A DNA stretch of 64,000 bases from an uncultured Acidobacteriota bacterium (GTDB lineage: Bacteria; Acidobacteriota; Terriglobia; UBA7540): NCBI GenBank assembly GCA_963804995.1, contig CAWDSK010000001.1, positions 1-64,000 of the forward strand. Direction: 5' to 3'. Made by a program: the position numbers and the translations under genes. The first letter of the stretch is position 1. Each line of letters opens with the position of its first letter. Of the stretch, positions 24,869-59,007 are shown piece by piece. The notes beneath the pieces are model-generated. The model was not told where the DNA came from. It searched no databases and was given only the letters and a program-made list of their open reading frames with translations.

Positions 24869-25167
24869 CACGGCGCCCTCCGGTTCAGAGGAGGCCGGGA
24901 CATGCTTATGGCTGCGGCAACAGACCAAGTCTCGTTTTTCGTCCGCGAATCCTTGCCCGGGGTGTCTCTTAGGCCAGAATCGGATGTGCGTCATCGCGAC
25001 TTGAAGTCGGTGACGTAGATCTCCGCAGTGCCGCTGAGCATCTTCAGGATGTGGGACCCAGCGTTCCCGGTGAGCCGCATGGGTGCTGGGCACGCCCAAT
25101 GAATTGGGAACGATGGGTCGGCATGTCAGAGACTGTCGCCCGGGATTTGGACTATCGGTAGCCCCTG

Positions 25168-27123
25168 GTAGGGTCGGGAACTGGCGCGGCGGCTCCGAGA
25201 AAGCTCCGAGCCCCGTTTCCAGCTCCCGCCACATCACACGTAGCGTGCGGATTTCCCGCACTACGCGTTCCTGCACACTTCACGGCAAGGGTTATGGGGC
25301 CTATCGGGTCGGGGCGGCTGCCCAGGAGGATGACTGATGGACCACGCGGTACTCGTGGAAGAGCCCGAGCGTGCCATACAGCCACTCCTTACGCCACCGC
25401 TTCCATCCGAAGCCTGGGCGTTGTCTGGCCCTCGCCAAGTGGCACCGAATCTTCTTCTCTACCCAGTCGCGGATATACGAGAAGCACCGGCTGGAGTGCC
25501 CGACCGCAAAGTAGTTCACCCAGCCGCGCAGAATGGGATTGATCTGCTCGATCAACCCCCTCACAGGCTGAGAGCGATAGCTCCGGAAAACTAGCTTGAG
25601 CTTGCGTAGCAATGCCGTCCGCTTCTTGCCCCGCGGCGTACGCAGCGGCATCCATCGGCCCCGCCGACTGCGGATGCGACGGAACTCAAACCCCAGAAAT
25701 CCGAAACTCTCTCCTTGCTGAAGATCCACCCTCCGGCTTTTCTCCTCGTTCACCTCAACCTGCAGCTTGGCCAACTCCTCCCGTAGCCGCTTTTCCACTG
25801 CCTTGCGAAGCCAGGCCTGCCGGGGATGAGCGTTCACCAGAACCACCAGATCATCGGCGAATCTGGCATATTCGACGTTCATCCACCGCCCCTCGCGGGT
25901 GACTTCCTTCGCCTTTTCCAGCATCTTGTCCACCTCATTGAGGTACACGTTACTGAGCAAGGGCGAAATCACCCCGCCTTGCGGAACACCCTGCTTCCCC
26001 GACGCCTTCAGCAGCAGTTTGAGCAGCCCTAGGACCTCGGTGTCGTTCACTCGCCGTGCCACCTTCTCCAGTACGAGGGAATGTCGAACCGTATCGAAGT
26101 AGGAACGCAAGTCGAGATCAACGACAAAGGTCATGTGCCGCACGATTGCCTCCGAGACGCGTTGAATCGCAGCGTGGGCTGACTTCTTCGGCCGGTAGCC
26201 AAACGATCCCGGTTGGAAATCGGCCTCAAAGATCGGTTCCAGGATCAGCTTCAACGCTCCCTGGACCACTCGGTCGCGAATGCAAGGAATCGAAAGTTGG
26301 CGAACCTTTCCGCCCTCCTTCGGAATCCCTACCTTCCGCAGCCGTCGAGGTCGATATCTCCGCTGCACCAGCTCCTCGCGAAGCTGTTCGAGAAATCCCT
26401 GCAAGCCTTCAGCCTCGATTGCCTGGAACGTGACCCCATCTACTCCTGGGGCTCCCTTGTTCTCCTTAGCTAGCTGATACGCTTCCCAGAGAGTTTCTCG
26501 TTTGCAGACGTGGACATACAACCCCCAGAATCGCCAAGTCGGTTCAGCCTTCGCCTTGACGTAAAGTCTTCGCCGCAGGTCTTGCAGCTTAAAGGGCGCT
26601 TTTATCATTTCACCCCTGCCTCCCATGTTGGCCAAGACTTGCTGTGCAGCAAGGCCCCTTCGCTCCATGGGCGTTACCCCACTTCGTCGCTACTTCGAGC
26701 CTAACCGCCACCGTCTCGCCGTCAGCCGATTTCCCGTTGTCTCCGGTTATACGGCCTACCCTGCTCCACCGATCTCTCGATGGGACGAGGACGGTTTCTC
26801 CAGTTGCTTGACATGCCCTTGCCACCGTGCTGCCCCTACCACCCCGCCGGAGTGACATGTCGTCTCGGTCAGCCCACGTCATGCCATGCTGCCTTCGCCC
26901 CGAAGGAGAGGGCTCGGCCTCCGGATTTATTTTTTTGTCGAGGCCACCTATGGGTTCACTTGCGTTACGGCCCGGTGACTCGCTCACCATCCCTTGGATG
27001 GCTTTGTCGGTCAGCTTCATCCGCTTCGTTTCCTCCACGGATGCGACCCAAGCTACAAGGCTCCTGACTCTTGCCTTGGTGGGACTAACTCCCACTGAAC
27101 ATACCAGCCTTTGCTGGACACAC
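25168..27123 (-). mobile_element. Complete group II intron (~1956 nt)
   Basis: 5' GTGTG at 27123; domain V-like GAACGCGTAGTGCGGGAAATCCGCACGCTACGTGTG; domain VI ending CCCGACCCTAC at 25168; EBS1 loop TCCTTCG (26901-26907) complementary to the 5' exon end CGAAGGA. Confidence 0.92.
25301..26608 (-). CDS. ltrA: Group II intron reverse transcriptase/maturase, no endonuclease domain
   Basis: GAPGVDG, IPKEGG..RQLSIP..RDRVVQ, SFGYRP, DLRSYFD, GVPQGGVISPLLSN, RFADD, FLGF, LRGWVNYF. Confidence 0.95.
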   Translation of the reverse strand: MIKAPFKLQDLRRRLYVKAKAEPTWRFWGLYVHVCKRETLWEAYQLAKENKGAPGVDGVTFQAIEAEGLQGFLEQLREELVQRRYRPRRLRKVGIPKEGGKVRQLSIPCIRDRVVQGALKLILEPIFEADFQPGSFGYRPKKSAHAAIQRVSEAIVRHMTFVVDLDLRSYFDTVRHSLVLEKVARRVNDTEVLGLLKLLLKASGKQGVPQGGVISPLLSNVYLNEVDKMLEKAKEVTREGRWMNVEYARFADDLVVLVNAHPRQAWLRKAVEKRLREELAKLQVEVNEEKSRRVDLQQGESFGFLGFEFRRIRSRRGRWMPLRTPRGKKRTALLRKLKLVFRSYRSQPVRGLIEQINPILRGWVNYFAVGHSSRCFSYIRDWVEKKIRCHLARARQRPGFGWKRWRKEWLYGTLGLFHEYRVVHQSSSWAAAPTR

Positions 27124-27473
27124 TCCTTCGCCAAAACTACATTTGTGAATCGCTGTGCCCTCAAGGAATCCTCTTCTTGCCATTTACAGCGCAACGGATG
27201 GCCGTAGCAGGTTCCGGCATCTCATGTCTCGGGTGTATCAAAGGGTCGCGCAGGGCGCGCCTGCATCCATTTGATTCTACATGGCGGCTGAATGCCTGTT
27301 TTGACTGTGCCAAAGGATGTGGTTTTGGCACCGCTGAAAGGTGAGAAGTCAGATTCGAGGGATCAGCAACTCGCGAGTGGCGTCTTGGGCACGTTTTCGG
27401 CACATTCCGTACACTGATACCACCGAGCGTCTTGTGATGTCCACGCGCTGCAGGAAAATTGCGTTCCTTGCCA

Positions 27474-30639: not shown

Positions 30640-31046
30640 ACGATCGTGCTGGGAGAAGGACATCTGCGAAAGATTTTGAAAAGCTATCTAAAGTATTATC
30701 ACGGCAGCCGGATTCACTTAGGTTTAGGCAAAGATACCCCTGAGCCGAGGGCCATTCAGCCGCCAGAGGTGGGAGGGATTGTTGAACTCCCGCTGGTGGG
30801 AGGTCTCCACCATCGCTACGCCCGACGGGCGGCTTAAGCACTGCAACCCGTCGAGCCAGACTTCTGCAACGATCCAACGGTCGCCCTCTGGGGGAAGATT
30901 CTTGTTCCACCGGCAACCGAGCCTCGCCGCCTTTCAGACGGCTTCCAGACAAATTCCCCAAACTGATTTCATTCTGAGGCGAAATGGAACAGAGGCTGTC
31001 GGCCAAGATGTTTTTTACGATTGATCCGGTATTGGCGAAGCACAGG
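30640..31046 (+). mobile_element. rve/integrase-core IS remnant (3' end plus right IR)
   Basis: IVLGEGHLRKIL..Y..YYH..R.HLGLGKDTP...GGLHHRYARRAA*; IR GTATTGGCGAAGCACAGG at 31029-31046. Confidence 0.8.
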
Positions 31047-31230: not shown

Positions 31231-31612
31231 TTATCCTAGCCCTTCTGAGCACTTGGCACCGGACCTGTCCTCCTGTGCTGGTGAAAAGCTTGTGAAATCG
31301 GTCAAGCGATCCAACACCTCTGCGTCAAGCTGGACCAACTCAGATGGAAGGACCGGTGCCTCCACTTCGCGGTCCGACTCTTCGAGTTGGAGTTCCGATG
31401 CCTCCAGGACGTTGACCAGGTTACTGACTCTTTTCGCGAAACGCGACAATGCTTTCTTATCGCCTTCGAAGGCGAGGGTGACCTTCAGTGGCCCCGGTTC
31501 AGCCGTGGGGGTCGCGGAAAGGCTTCGTATGGCGCAGCACTGAGCAGTGATTATAGTTAGGATTCTTTGCAGTGCTCCGGCAGCGTTTTCAAGTAGCACG
31601 GCAAGCAATTTT
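31231..31612 (-). pseudogene. Remnant C-terminal ACT domain of an ilvB-ACT paralogue, truncated by IS256
   Basis: LLENAAGALQRILTIITAQ...LKVTLAFEGD..ALSR.AKRVS.LVNVLE closely matches the C-terminus of 55236-57362. Confidence 0.75.
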
Positions 31613-31615
31613 TGT

Positions 31616-31990
31616 GTGAGGGGCGCCGCGCGCAGTCTCGAGGAAGGCCTGGAGGAGACCCTCACGGTTCACCGTTTGCGGGTGCCCCTCAAACTCCGCC
31701 GCACCCTCGCCAGCACCAACGTGATCGAGTCTGCCTTCTCCATCGTGGAGACGGTATGCCGCAACGTGAAGCGCTGGCACGGCGGAGACCAGATGGAGCG
31801 CTGGGTGGGCTCAGGCCTGCTGGTGGCCGAGCGCAAGTTCCGGAAGGTGCGTGGCTATCGAGAGATTCCGTTGCTCATGGCTTTCTTGACCAACGCTGTC
31901 TCCAAGAAGCCGCTTGCCAAGGGAGTCGCTGCTGCGTAACCTGTGACGGTTGAGGGTCGCTGACTTTCAACGGAGTTTCGGGCAATCTCC
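31616..31990 (+). mobile_element. IS256 (Mutator) family remnant, 3' end
   Basis: LEETLTVHRL...LRRTLASTNVIES...RNVKRW...RW...LL.AE.KFRKV.GY; terminus ...TTTCAACGGAGTTTCGGGCAATCTCC. Confidence 0.8.
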
Positions 31991-53876: not shown

Positions 53877-55193
53877 CCTGTACCTGCCAAAAACTCCGTC
53901 CGGATTGAAATCATTGATGTTGGTTGGCTCCCACTGCTAAGCTTCCCGCTCCCATGTTTACCCTATTCTTTTCCTTCCTGGGCACTCTCCGCTCCTGCTT
54001 CCAAACCCGGGCGGCCTTGCAGTTGGAGATTCTTGCCCTCCGCCACCAGATAAACGTGCTCCGAAGGTCGCAGCGTGGGCGCGTTCGACTCACGGAGGTG
54101 GACCGCCTCTTGTGGACATGGCTGCTGTACCTCTGGCCCGGCTGGCGTTCTGCGCTCATCATCGTCAAGCCGGAAACGGTTATTGCCTGGCATCGCCGGG
54201 GATTCCGCCTGTATTGGACATCGAAGAGTAGACCGGGTAGGCCGGGAAGGCCTGAAGTGTCTCGTGAGGTTCGGGACCTCATCCGGAAGATGAGCCTGGC
54301 GAATCCGCGCTGGGGAGCACCAAGCATCCATGGCGAGCTCCTGAAGCTCGGAATTGAATTATCTCAAGCCACCGCTGCCAAGTACATGGAGCGTCACCGA
54401 AGACCACCCTCCCAGATGTGGCGTACGTTCCTCGATATTCACCTGAAGCAATTGGTCTCCACGGATTTCTTCGTCGTGCCGACGGTGAACTTTCGAATCC
54501 TCTTTGTCTTTGTGGTCTTGGCCCATCAGCGGCGCCGCGTGATTCATTTCAACGTTACTGCCCATCCCACCTCGGAATGGACGGCGCAACAGGTTGTCGA
54601 GGCCTTCCCTTGGGATACGGCCCCACGCTATCTGCTCCGTGATCGCGATAGCATCCATGGCGACGTTTTCCGGCAAAGAGTCCGAGGGATGGCGATTCGC
54701 GAAGTCATGACGGCCCCGAGGGCGCCATGGCAGAGTCCCTATGTGGAGCGCCTGATCGGATCCGTTCGACGGGAGTGCCTGGATCACCTCATCGTACTCA
54801 ACGAGGAGTCTCTGCGCCAGAGGCTCAAGTTGTATTTCGCTTACTACCACCGGGCCCGCACTCACTTGTCGTTGGATAAAGATGCACCGGAGAGCAGACC
54901 GGTTCAACCGCCAGAGCTGGGGTCCGTCGTTGAATTGCGGGAGGTGGGTGGACTGCATCACCGCTACGAACGGCGGGCGGCTTGAAGAATTGTTCACAGA
55001 CTCAAGAGGGGTGTGTTCCCACTGGAGTCGGCCGAGATCGGTGAAGCCTCCCTCCCGCTGGGAACAGAACCTTCCCCGCACTCGCACCGCCATAAAATCT
55101 GGAGGCCGCGTCCGCCCAGCAACTCCCTCGACCCTTTGACACGGTGCGAATTAGCCGCACTTTGCGGTCGATCGAGTTTTTGGCAGGGACAGG
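53877..55193 (+). mobile_element. rve/integrase-core IS element, apparently intact
   Basis: IRs CCTGTACCTGCCAAAAACTC / GAGTTTTTGGCAGGGACAGG (19/20); no target duplication seen. Confidence 0.88.
53954..54985 (+). CDS. Integrase-core (rve) DDE transposase
   Basis: LEILALRHQ, VKPETV..WHR, NP.WGA..IHGEL, DFF.V, LLRDRD, PWQ.PY.ERLIGS.RRECLD, GGLHHRY. Confidence 0.92.
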   Translation: MFTLFFSFLGTLRSCFQTRAALQLEILALRHQINVLRRSQRGRVRLTEVDRLLWTWLLYLWPGWRSALIIVKPETVIAWHRRGFRLYWTSKSRPGRPGRPEVSREVRDLIRKMSLANPRWGAPSIHGELLKLGIELSQATAAKYMERHRRPPSQMWRTFLDIHLKQLVSTDFFVVPTVNFRILFVFVVLAHQRRRVIHFNVTAHPTSEWTAQQVVEAFPWDTAPRYLLRDRDSIHGDVFRQRVRGMAIREVMTAPRAPWQSPYVERLIGSVRRECLDHLIVLNEESLRQRLKLYFAYYHRARTHLSLDKDAPESRPVQPPELGSVVELREVGGLHHRYERRAA

Positions 55194-55235: not shown

Positions 55236-57362
55236 TCAGGCAGCGCTTACGCCACTATCGCAATCCTTTCTTGCGGTGGATTGGGGTTTCTTGCTCTCCC
55301 CTCGAAGTTGCAGGTCCAACGCCTCCACCTGGCTGGGCAAAACTTCTAGCGGCGGTTCCAACAATTCCAGGACGTTAACCAGTTGACTTACTCTTTTGGC
55401 CACTCGCGACAATGCTATCTCATCACCTTGGAGCGCGATGGTAACCTTTAAATGGTCCGATACCCCCGTCGGAACGGCGAAGAGGCTCCGGACAGCGCAG
55501 CCCTGGGTCGTGATGATGGTAAGGATTCTTTGCAGGGCTCCGGGGAGGTTTTCCACCAGCAGGGCAAAGGACTTTTGCGTGGGCAGAGCAGCCTCATCAC
55601 GCTGCCCCTGGGGTAAGGCCGCGGCTGCTGGCGAGGTAAGCTCACCGCTCCGTTCTTCTGGTCCCAAGACCATCTCGTGGATTCCCGCGCCCGAGGGCAC
55701 CATGGGGTAGACGTTTTCGAAAGGCGCTACTTTTACATTGAGAAGGCACGGGCCGGGCGCGCTGGCGGCGTCCCGCAGGACTTGGGTCAGCATCGAGGGG
55801 CTGTCGATATTGAATCCCCGCAGGCCATAGGCCTCGGCGAGTTTCGGTGCATCCGGGAAGGTGTCGAGCTTAACGGCGCTCAGCCGGTTGTGATGGAACA
55901 GTTCTTGCCACTGGCGCACCATTCCCAGGTGGCCGTTATTCATGACCACGATCTTGATGGGCAAGGCGTAATTAGCCACAGTGGCTAGTTCCGGGATGGA
56001 CATCTGGAAGCCGCCATCACCAACCAGGGCAAATACCGGCTTATCCGGACAGGCAATCTGCGCTCCGATGGCGGCGGGCAAACCAAAACCCATGGATCCC
56101 AGGCCCCCGGAGTTGAGCCACAGGCGCGGCTCATTGAAGCGGATCAGTTGTGCGGCCCACATTTGGTGCTGCCCCACATCAGAACAGACCAGCGCGGCGC
56201 CCGCAGACACCCTGTCGATTTCCGCCATCAGGTGTTGCGGCTTGATCACCTCGTCGGACGCCGGGGTGGTCAGCGGATACTGGGCTTTCCAACCTCGCAC
56301 TTGAATACGCCAGGCCTTACGCTCACGGGCACATTCCTCAGCATACTGGGACTTTGTTTCCCTGAGATAATGGTTCAACTGTCGTAGCACGCATTTTACG
56401 TCCCCTGTGATCGAAATATCCGCGCTGCGGTTTTTACCGAGTTCGGAGGCGTCGATATCCACATGAATGACCTTGGCATGTGGAGCAAAAGTGGAAAGCT
56501 TTCCGGTCACGCGATCGTCAAAGCGCACCCCGAGGGCAATCAGCAGGTCGGCATGAGTCAGGCCCATGTTGGCAGCGTAACTCCCGTGCATGCCAGGCAT
56601 ACTCACGAAATTCGGATCGTCGGCGGGTAATCCCCCCAGGCCCATGAGGGTGCAAACCGTGGGGGCATCAAGGAACCCGACGAACTCTTGTAACTCCGCA
56701 GCCGCTCCGGCCGAAACAATTCCGCCTCCGGCGTAGATGATCGGGCGCTCGGACGCCCAGATCAACTGACCAGCCTGTTGGATGTACGCGGGATCGCCGT
56801 CCGCTGGGACTTTGTACCCCGGAAGGTCGAGCTCATCGCAGGGGACGAACTGAGCTTTCGACTGTTGAACGTCCTTGGGGATGTCAATGAGGACAGGACC
56901 TGGACGTCCCGTTGAGGCAATGTGGAACGCTTCATGTATTACGCGGGGTAAGTCCTCAATCTTCCGAACCTGGTAATTGTGCTTGGTGCAGGGGAGTGAG
57001 ATGCCGAAGGTATCCGCTTCCTGGAAGGCCGTGGTCCCCAGGACTTTTGTTGAGACCTGGCCGGTGATGGCGACGATGGGGATGGAATCCAAATAAGCGT
57101 CCGCCAGGCCGGTCACCAGGTTAGTGGCGCCCGGGCCGGATGTGGCGCAGCACACGCCAACTTTACCGGAAGCGCGCGCATACCCTTCAGCGGCAAAGCA
57201 GGCGTTCTCCTCGTGCCGCATCAACACATGGCGGATGCCGTGGTCGTAAAGAGCATCGTAGAGCGGCAAGGTGGCGCCCCCCGGAAAGCCGAAGATGTCC
57301 TTCACCCCTTCTCGGGCCAAACACTCCAAGAGGATTTCTGCACCTGTCATCATATTCGGCAT
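55236..57362 (-). CDS. ilvB: Acetolactate synthase large subunit fused to a C-terminal ACT domain
   Basis: FGFPGG, RHEE, TSGPGATN, FQEAD, GRPGPVL, GMHG, RFDDRVTG, DVGQHQMW, SGGLGSMG, GDGG..NN..LGMVRQWQ, PMVP; extra ~140 aa with an LVENLPGALQRI ACT motif. Confidence 0.95.
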   Translation of the reverse strand: MPNMMTGAEILLECLAREGVKDIFGFPGGATLPLYDALYDHGIRHVLMRHEENACFAAEGYARASGKVGVCCATSGPGATNLVTGLADAYLDSIPIVAITGQVSTKVLGTTAFQEADTFGISLPCTKHNYQVRKIEDLPRVIHEAFHIASTGRPGPVLIDIPKDVQQSKAQFVPCDELDLPGYKVPADGDPAYIQQAGQLIWASERPIIYAGGGIVSAGAAAELQEFVGFLDAPTVCTLMGLGGLPADDPNFVSMPGMHGSYAANMGLTHADLLIALGVRFDDRVTGKLSTFAPHAKVIHVDIDASELGKNRSADISITGDVKCVLRQLNHYLRETKSQYAEECARERKAWRIQVRGWKAQYPLTTPASDEVIKPQHLMAEIDRVSAGAALVCSDVGQHQMWAAQLIRFNEPRLWLNSGGLGSMGFGLPAAIGAQIACPDKPVFALVGDGGFQMSIPELATVANYALPIKIVVMNNGHLGMVRQWQELFHHNRLSAVKLDTFPDAPKLAEAYGLRGFNIDSPSMLTQVLRDAASAPGPCLLNVKVAPFENVYPMVPSGAGIHEMVLGPEERSGELTSPAAAALPQGQRDEAALPTQKSFALLVENLPGALQRILTIITTQGCAVRSLFAVPTGVSDHLKVTIALQGDEIALSRVAKRVSQLVNVLELLEPPLEVLPSQVEALDLQLRGESKKPQSTARKDCDSGVSAA

Positions 57363-57659: not shown

Positions 57660-59007
57660 TGTCTACCCGAAATACTTCATATCCCTTTAGGTCCAAGGAA
57701 TTAGAAAGGTTGCAAAGCCTGCCTAACGATTACCATCTTTGAGCATGAAAACAATCCAGAATCTCTGTCGGCAGCCCCTCTCGTTTCTGCGATTCGGGCA
57801 AGAGGTCATCCATTATGCACTGATCTTTGTCTCGGCCTTCTTCCGCAGCCGCGCCTCACTGGGATGTGAGTTGGTGGCCATTCGAAGTCAGCTCAGCTTT
57901 TACAAAGAAAGTATCCGGCAAAAAAACAGACCCGACCCCGGTTCACCCCGGCTTTCCGTCTCCTGTGGGTGCTGTTGTCCGTGGTTTGGAGGGGGTGGAA
58001 ACCTGTCGCAGACTTGATGCAGCCAAAGACTGTTCTCAAATGGCATAAGAGAGGTCTTCGCCTGTGGTGGCGCTGGAAATCGCGGGGCGTGGGAGGGCGC
58101 CCCCTAATCAGCCAGGAAATGCGCGTTCTGATCCGACAACTCAGTGGCGAAAACGCGCTGTGGAGTGCCGAAAGGATTCATGGGCATTTGCTGCTTCTCG
58201 GTTTCGATCCTCCCTGCCCGGACACGATTCGCAAGTACATGGTCAAGCCTAAAGGAGGAACGGAGAAGTCCCAGAACTGGCTGACCTTCCTGCGCAATCA
58301 TACGGACGTTCAGCTGGGGAATGGACTTTTTCACTGTGCCCACCATTCGATTCCAAATCCTTTATGTCTTCGTGATCCTCAATCAAGCCCGTCGTCAGGT
58401 GGTACACGTAGCCGTGACGGCTCGTCCCACGATGGCTTGGGTGATCCAGCAGCTGCGCGAGGCGATGCCCTTTGGCATCCAGCCCACTTACCTATTCCGG
58501 GATAATGACGCAGTTTATGGAGATGAGGTGGGTCGATTCCTAAAGGGAACGGGCATCGAAGAAGTTAGAACTGCCTTTCGCTGTCCCTGGCAAAATCCAT
58601 TCGTCGAAAGGTATGGCGGCACCCTGCGGCGGGAGCTGTTGGATCACGTCATGATTCTCAGTGAAGAACACCTAAAACGACTGCTGAGGGAATACATCAA
58701 AGAGTATTATCACATCGCCAGGCCGCATTATGGTTTGGACGGCGAGACGCCCTTTCGCACCAATAAGCCTGAGCCCGTCACAGAGCCGAGCAGGCTTGTT
58801 TCCGTTCCAGTTGTAGGCGGCCTGCATCACCGTTACATCCGGGTGGCAGCATAATCTTCTTAGGGATCGCACAATCACAATAACGCTGCGAAGACGAGAG
58901 TCACTACCGAAGGACAGTGCATGTGAGAGATTCTTGTTCATCCACCGTTGCAGTACCGCAACGCTCATCAAGGAATCTGTGGCTTTAAGGTTTTTCGAGT
59001 GGACAGG
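57660..59007 (+). mobile_element. rve/integrase-core IS element, transposase frameshifted
   Basis: Three ORF pieces (57739-58017, 57969-58505, 58321-58854) with P.TV.KWH, DFFTV, FRDND, PWQNP..ER, GGLHHRY; IRs TGTCTACCCGAAATAC (57660) / GTTTTTCGAGTGGACAGG (58990-59007). Confidence 0.82.

Follow-up and report, generated by a model that had tools for sequence, protein, structure and literature searches.

A mobile class F group II intron and the probable adaptation of its clade to terminal inverted repeats in an rve-type insertion sequence family

The window analysed here, a stretch of 64,000 nucleotides from an uncultured Acidobacteriota bacterium of the UBA7540 lineage (contig CAWDSK010000001.1), carries a group II intron together with a complete element, a frameshifted element and a remnant of an rve-type transposase family (Table 1). 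The intron runs from GTGTG at 27123 (minus strand) to CCCTAC at 25168, the same terminal bases that delimit six near-identical copies in the host genome, and it shows the group II hallmarks of domain I, V and VI structure and GUGYG...AY ends. Its protein scores 368 bits on TIGR04416 (cut-off 300) and has RVT_1 and GIIM as its only Pfam domains. In the predicted fold six nucleotides of EBS1 lie in a loop and the seventh closes the stem; taken alone, the fold of the EBS region is no stabler than shuffled sequence (z -0.38). Joined exons were absent from the one RNA run, X15, which is not evidence against splicing, and in none of the sequencing runs was half of the words reached.

With respect to class, FADD in RT5 and the lack of an En domain characterize g2 introns (PMC3552965), and the translation and Pfam search of the window intron reveal both. 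Like the class F/g2 introns typified by B.th.I3, it has FADD, an RT-X protein only and a length of about 1.95-2.0 kb. Its RT is 49% identical to that of B.th.I3 (g2), for which NC_009841.1 was taken as the record of the plasmid named in Table S2 of PMC3552965, versus 38% to that of Ni.ha.I1 (g3), and it groups with B.th.I3 at 68% ultrafast bootstrap in a tree with one g2 and one g3 reference only. We file the intron as apparently class F, nearest g2, an assignment limited by this 68% support. FADD and the similarity to B.th.I3 point to class F over class D, a class without a reference in the tree.

Table 1. Features of the window, in order of position
Feature	Position	Strand	Details
Terminal TG of end motif (start of 3' exon)	25166..25167	plus	
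Group II intron	25168..27123	minus	1956 nt, lacking an endonuclease domain; class F (nearest g2)
Domains V and VI	25168..25275	minus	two hairpins, z = -5.3, 0/200 shuffles equally stable
Intron-encoded RT/maturase	25301..26668	minus	455 aa; FADD active-site motif
EBS1, 7 nt	26901..26907	minus	equals element-end positions 3-9; fold and covariation
A-rich loop, putative EBS2	26932..26937	minus	seen in fold; probable register
Part of domain I	26960..27097	minus	Rfam group-II-D1D4-4, 125.9 bits (gathering 49)
Remainder of end motif (5' exon), orphan stub of ~20 bp	27124..27143	plus	matrix score 22.5
Small repeat	27144..27317	plus	other copies without adjoining rve gene
C-terminal rve stub (30640-30831) and right end	30640..31044	plus	TGT at 31044, minus
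Complete intron-free rve element	53879..55191	plus	ORF 53924-54985; both ends on matrix
Frameshifted rve element with both ends	57660..59005	plus	

The protein of the complete rve element contains Pfam rve_3 and an N-terminal HTH_32, and plasmid records label its relatives only 'integrase core domain-containing protein'. It shares with IS3 and IS481 the rve_3 core with N-terminal HTH and ends of the TG...CA type, but falls below both NCBIfam cut-offs (72.6 bits against 160 for IS3 NF033516; 70.8 bits against 224 for IS481 NF033577), has TGT or CGT ends and shows no duplication above 3 bp at 20 of 20 repeat pairs. In other genomes a pair of YGT repeats was found for 20 of 36 near-complete rve genes, a register partly imposed by a script that sought a TGT or CGT start near the best pair. 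Within a search covering up to 12 bp, none of these 20 pairs was flanked by a target duplication longer than 3 bp (0 bp in 12, 1 in 5, 2 in 2 and 3 in 1). Most IS481 elements generate 6 bp duplications (PMC10045372), which the host family apparently lacks; absent duplications may also result from rearrangement (PMC11708052). The paired terminal repeats, with homology stopping at the tip in different flanks, are those of an insertion sequence, and we regard the host family as an unclassified, IS3/IS481-like rve family. Its genes concentrate in a few regions of the host genome.

The ends in the window start at TGT (53879, 55191, 31044 and 59005), and 25 unique intron-free rve ends of the host genome, taken from 40 windows beside rve genes, yield the consensus TGT-N7-A-tract. 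An earlier note on this DNA had given the motif as CCTGT...AAAAC. The TGT and the A-tract stand, whereas CCTGT as the element end was rejected: identical ends carry differing flanks directly outside TGT or CGT, and CC precedes only 16 of 29 TGT ends, so that CC is a flank preference and the motif proper is YGT. Two further observations concern this family. The right ends at 31044 and 55191 are each located just beyond the 3' terminus of a gene or remnant resembling an ACT-domain acetolactate synthase (31231-31665 and 55236-57362). In addition, four copies, more than 99% identical, of a 3.39-kb element encoding a large serine recombinase (C1:136163-139557, C6:304396-307790, C6:764607-768001 and C6:882530-885919; L261) occupy one conserved position common to four divergent rve genes; this element is a second site-specific parasite of the rve family.

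Joining the exons of the window intron gives a sequence that matches rve ends and that the insertion splits as TG|T, with the terminal TG on one side of the intron and the remainder of the motif on the other. EBS1 is complementary to the final seven exon bases at 7/7 positions. The joined site is identical to the rve end at 31029-31046 at 16/18 positions, and at 13/18, 14/18 and 12/18 to those at 53877, 55193 and 59007, respectively. On the matrix of the 25 intron-free ends it attains a score equalled or bettered at 20 of 15,104,418 genome positions. The boundaries, the 16/18 match and this score bear out the earlier note's placement of the intron in an rve-type terminal repeat, and the resemblances and the division of TGT that it reported hold as well. 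A contig skipping exactly 1956 bases, so that 25167 is joined to 27124, was recovered in one of four runs (X3, its kind guessed to be DNA) at depth 2, with 51 letters on the short side and a likeness of 88, and is a weak sign of an empty allele.

The surroundings of this site are sparse. On its 5'-exon side the first 3 kb are free of rve genes, the nearest being the stub at 30640-30831; no partner end was found within 2.6 kb (best score 5.6), and the identity to the end at 31044 does not extend further. After about 20 bp the sequence turns into a non-rve repeat, which matches G065 at 88.5% and 82.9% and C6 at 82.5% over part of its length. None of four loci with this repeat gave an rve profile hit, and the homology between the window and G065 begins only at 27144, past the end stub. 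A search of the genome and the loci for the motif continuing beyond the stub returned a single unrelated-looking match with 6 mismatches. The window site is an orphan end of about 20 bp without a recognisable element body; together with the end at 31044 it may form a composite of 3.9 kb.

The host genome holds six full intron copies at five sites, differing from the window copy at 0-3 nt, from which we infer that the intron is mobile, as well as one fragment at 92%. At C6:293628-297539 two copies are joined exactly head to tail within one end motif, the top-scoring one of the genome, which is followed by nested ends and by an rve gene 1064 nt away. At C5:1125512 the intron occupies a left end, with an rve start 102 nt away; an empty end 92% identical to it lies at C1:140391. 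On the intron-free-end matrix three of the five sites are among the top 20 of 15.1 million positions, and the other two, interrupting one gene with a PAS domain and one HigB-like gene, are ectopic; the five thus comprise one plain element end, two ends without an adjoining gene and two ectopic insertions. The intron is in sense with the G-rich strand at four of five sites, with the window site ambiguous and the skew itself noisy and weak. Other mobile DNA here includes the reverse case at C5:1233825-1235545, where a CGT-type rve element cut into a related intron and left a 497-nt 3' fragment; a second intron family (38 RT hits), whose members share a 3' flank motif; and a g3-like third family with three copies.

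The sparse surroundings of the window site are what one would expect if the lineage targets ends while this particular site is a chance look-alike that was never part of an element. That reading is an unlikely one in our judgement, given that the site also matches end positions not read by EBS1 (T1 and most of 16-20), scoring 22.5 versus 7.1 for the PAS-gene site, that its first 17 bases are those of the C6 site with its nested ends, and that the right end at 31044 faces it.

The set of related introns comprises the 80 best among 424 hits in genomes and the 80 best among 567 in metagenomes, together with the five sites of the host genome itself. A 5' boundary could be placed at 132 of these 165 loci, and the 33 lacking one were left out. 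The loci are related, so the counts are not independent, and identical 5' exons were collapsed. Four loci (L106, L127, L128 and L136) stand outside the clade counts because two trees place them differently; L229, L237 and L247 were omitted from the matrix owing to a slipped register, and L168, from genome G075, was unused; none of the conclusions depends on G075, G097 or G254. A clade around the window intron received a FastTree support of 0.99, and IQ-TREE gave 96% (31 sequences) to a similar group that also contains L127 and L136.

Of the 41 clade sites whose 5' exon spans 300 nt or more, 16 abut an rve gene in the geometry of an element end, eight at left ends and eight at right ends. By contrast, this geometry was seen at 0/39 sites of other relatives and at 0/32 on the 3'-exon side. 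On a matrix of 55 intron-free ends, the 99.9th percentile of the null for the end motif was exceeded at 31 of 53 clade sites versus 0 of 47 sites of other relatives; this score is partly circular in that any chosen site must match EBS1 and EBS2, and only rve adjacency is independent of it. When proteins were clustered at 95%, the geometry was present in 14 of 28 clusters, geometry or motif in 21 and neither in 7. With two sites of shorter flanks included, 18 sites are geometry-positive, of which 16 are split as TG|T or CG|T and one as GG|T, while the remaining one has no 3' exon. Their proteins are 67-100% identical and come from records of Acidobacteriota, Gammaproteobacteria and Gemmatimonadota. 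The earlier note's proposal that an endonuclease-less lineage homes to transposon ends is upheld by this geometry and common register, as a preference: two of the five sites in the host genome are in ordinary genes and the 7 of 28 clusters lack both motif and rve gene, so end targeting is not exclusive.

Individual loci illustrate the use of both ends. In one 99.65% identical element the end occupied by the intron is the left one in L011 and the right one in L012/L013, and in L016 one end holds an intron while the other holds the 5' end of another intron. An rve gene in end geometry is missing from 25 of the 41 clade sites, 15 of which are also under the motif threshold, and some motif-only sites are ends of MITE-like units of 109-162 bp (L175, L171, L181 and L163/L021). 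The main set showed no enrichment of partner ends (4/41 clade sites versus 2/39 others), and no common transposase family adjoins motif-only sites in the 51 of 99 candidate frames that were scanned. A class-wide search added 13 sites off the tree, five over the motif threshold and two with the geometry, one of the latter motif-less.

Beyond the clade, L127 and L128 insert inside an rve reading frame, and a pattern taken to be domain-V-like was matched at 35 of 46 sites of other relatives. The wider group of introns has thus specialised, with several different parts of other mobile elements as its targets. The relatives also include ORF-less forms (L171 and L174, 771 and 864 nt), the former in the end of a 130-bp MITE-like unit, and a single relative on viral contigs, at 59%. 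The CGT-type left end of L011-L013 resembles the reverse complement of the intron 3' terminus at 8 of its first 9 bases, which may be chance. The 5' flanks of L081 and L084 apparently do not stem from the same sites as their 3' flanks, which points to recombination among intron copies or to a chimeric assembly.

The comparison of homologues and of EBS1/IBS1 covariation that the earlier note had proposed places relatives at rve ends, and it shows EBS1 to covary with its site. Across 23 distinct EBS1 hexamers the pairing with the cognate site averages 5.6/6, versus 3.08 after shuffling (maximum 4.26 in 5000). Positions 2-7 of EBS1 each covary (0.84-0.98 paired versus 0.38-0.49 shuffled), with 0.90 versus 0.43 at the seventh; position 1 is nearly always T, and an eighth position does not pair across the relatives (0.11). 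This covariation, position by position, indicates that EBS1 reads end positions 3-9. Furthermore, when hexamers are ranked for end positions 3-8, the top 10% includes 16 of the 23 clade variants, against 2 of the 22 from other relatives. Within the clade the EBS2 loop is rich in A, and most other relatives differ there; we infer that its pairing partner would be the run of T facing the element end's A-tract. The register YG|T is constant in the TGT and CGT subfamilies.

Collectively, these data make it highly probable that the window intron, of class F (g2-like), is young and mobile and belongs to a clade with an adaptation to rve-family terminal inverted repeats. Target, register, EBS1 pairing, use of both ends and recent mobility are established by comparison of sequences. 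The intron RNA would reverse-splice into the strand running out of the element, between end positions 2 and 3, with EBS1 reading positions 3-9, as the covariation argues, the A-rich EBS2 probably reading the A-tract, which is conserved, and the G that is invariant in YGT presumably serving as first 3'-exon base. Such fixed landmarks would hold the register while EBS1 drifts after subfamily variants, including the TGT/CGT split. The cDNA is probably primed at replication forks, as the class and its missing endonuclease suggest; fork priming is attributed to endonuclease-less introns (PMC4424553). Either end of an element, left or right, would be a usable target, as would MITE-like derivatives and orphan stubs (the window site among them), and loose matches would give rise to ectopic copies. 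After insertion the inner end would start with ACT, its terminal TG 1956 bp away, and would thus probably be inactivated.

A variant of this scheme couples the clade to the transposase, which would fix the position of insertion and, on cleaving beside the end, expose a single strand as target or a flank 3'-OH as cDNA primer, in place of an endonuclease. In copy-out transposition the 3'-OH of the flank primes replication. The donor 3'-OH during copy-out/paste-in transposition attacks the flank beside the other end (PMC7780238). The insertion strand does end in CA-3', 2 nt from the cut expected by analogy with DDE enzymes, and the register stays constant while EBS1 varies, but base pairing suffices to explain that register, the strand bias fits ordinary fork priming, and insertions occur all the same at ectopic sites, in orphan stubs and in MITE-like targets. 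We consider the coupling very improbable; if true, the intron would both exploit and shut down active elements. That the intron shows no adaptation at all, taking any EBS-compatible sequence and meeting rve ends through shared islands, has in its favour the clustering of rve genes, the ectopic copies and the presence in the host genome of 84 unoccupied, loosely compatible sites, only 6 of which lie within 300 bp of an rve gene, but it is largely refuted by the asymmetry of side and register and by the clade's bias towards end hexamers, co-location predicting rve genes on either side at any distance, and we give it almost no credence.

Adaptation to transposon ends, the reading we prefer, has a precedent in RmInt2, all seven copies of which in Sinorhizobium meliloti GR4 lie in ISRm17 inverted repeats (PMC4615759, PMC5894124), a case missing from the known group II targets that the earlier note listed. 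The papers on it consider target doubling, a site on the lagging strand and copies in head-to-tail order (PMC4615759, PMC5894124, PMC8496243). RmInt2 resembles the window clade in having no endonuclease, in using left and right inverted repeats, in its relaxed specificity and in its head-to-tail double copies. It differs in being a class D intron of one strain, whereas the window clade is class F/g2-like, is found in three phyla and has an EBS1 tracking a diverse IS family; moreover, homing of RmInt2 was demonstrated by assay, while the window clade is known from comparative data. Homing to IS ends is already known and is not a new principle, and the sheltering of introns in mobile elements is general (PMC7306698).

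Class C introns, at terminators and attC sites (PMC4424553), and a groEL-type IIB1 clade (PMC12584367) are likewise tied, as whole clades, to one genomic feature; unlike them, the window clade targets a transposon end through a 7-bp EBS1, with no sign of a need for a hairpin. The g2 loci in Table S2 of PMC3552965 comprise transposase genes, non-coding DNA and a hypothetical gene, and that table names no inverted-repeat target; the accessible text of PMC8919778 contains no match to 'inverted repeat'. The literature searched, with subscription papers mostly out of reach, yielded neither a published account of the window clade's target nor a published name for the host IS family. The maintenance of a fixed register across a clade in three phyla is apparently unpublished.

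In the papers located, a single intron of a single strain is the basis for IS-end homing, which here appears as the long-lived habit of a class F clade. The 23 natural EBS1 variants paired with their sites form a ready set for testing the target rules of class F introns, among them the 7-bp EBS1 and the fixed register, and would be equally useful for asking whether introns curb the spread of insertion sequences by breaking their ends. Finally, these introns mark the ends of an unclassified and apparently duplication-free IS family.
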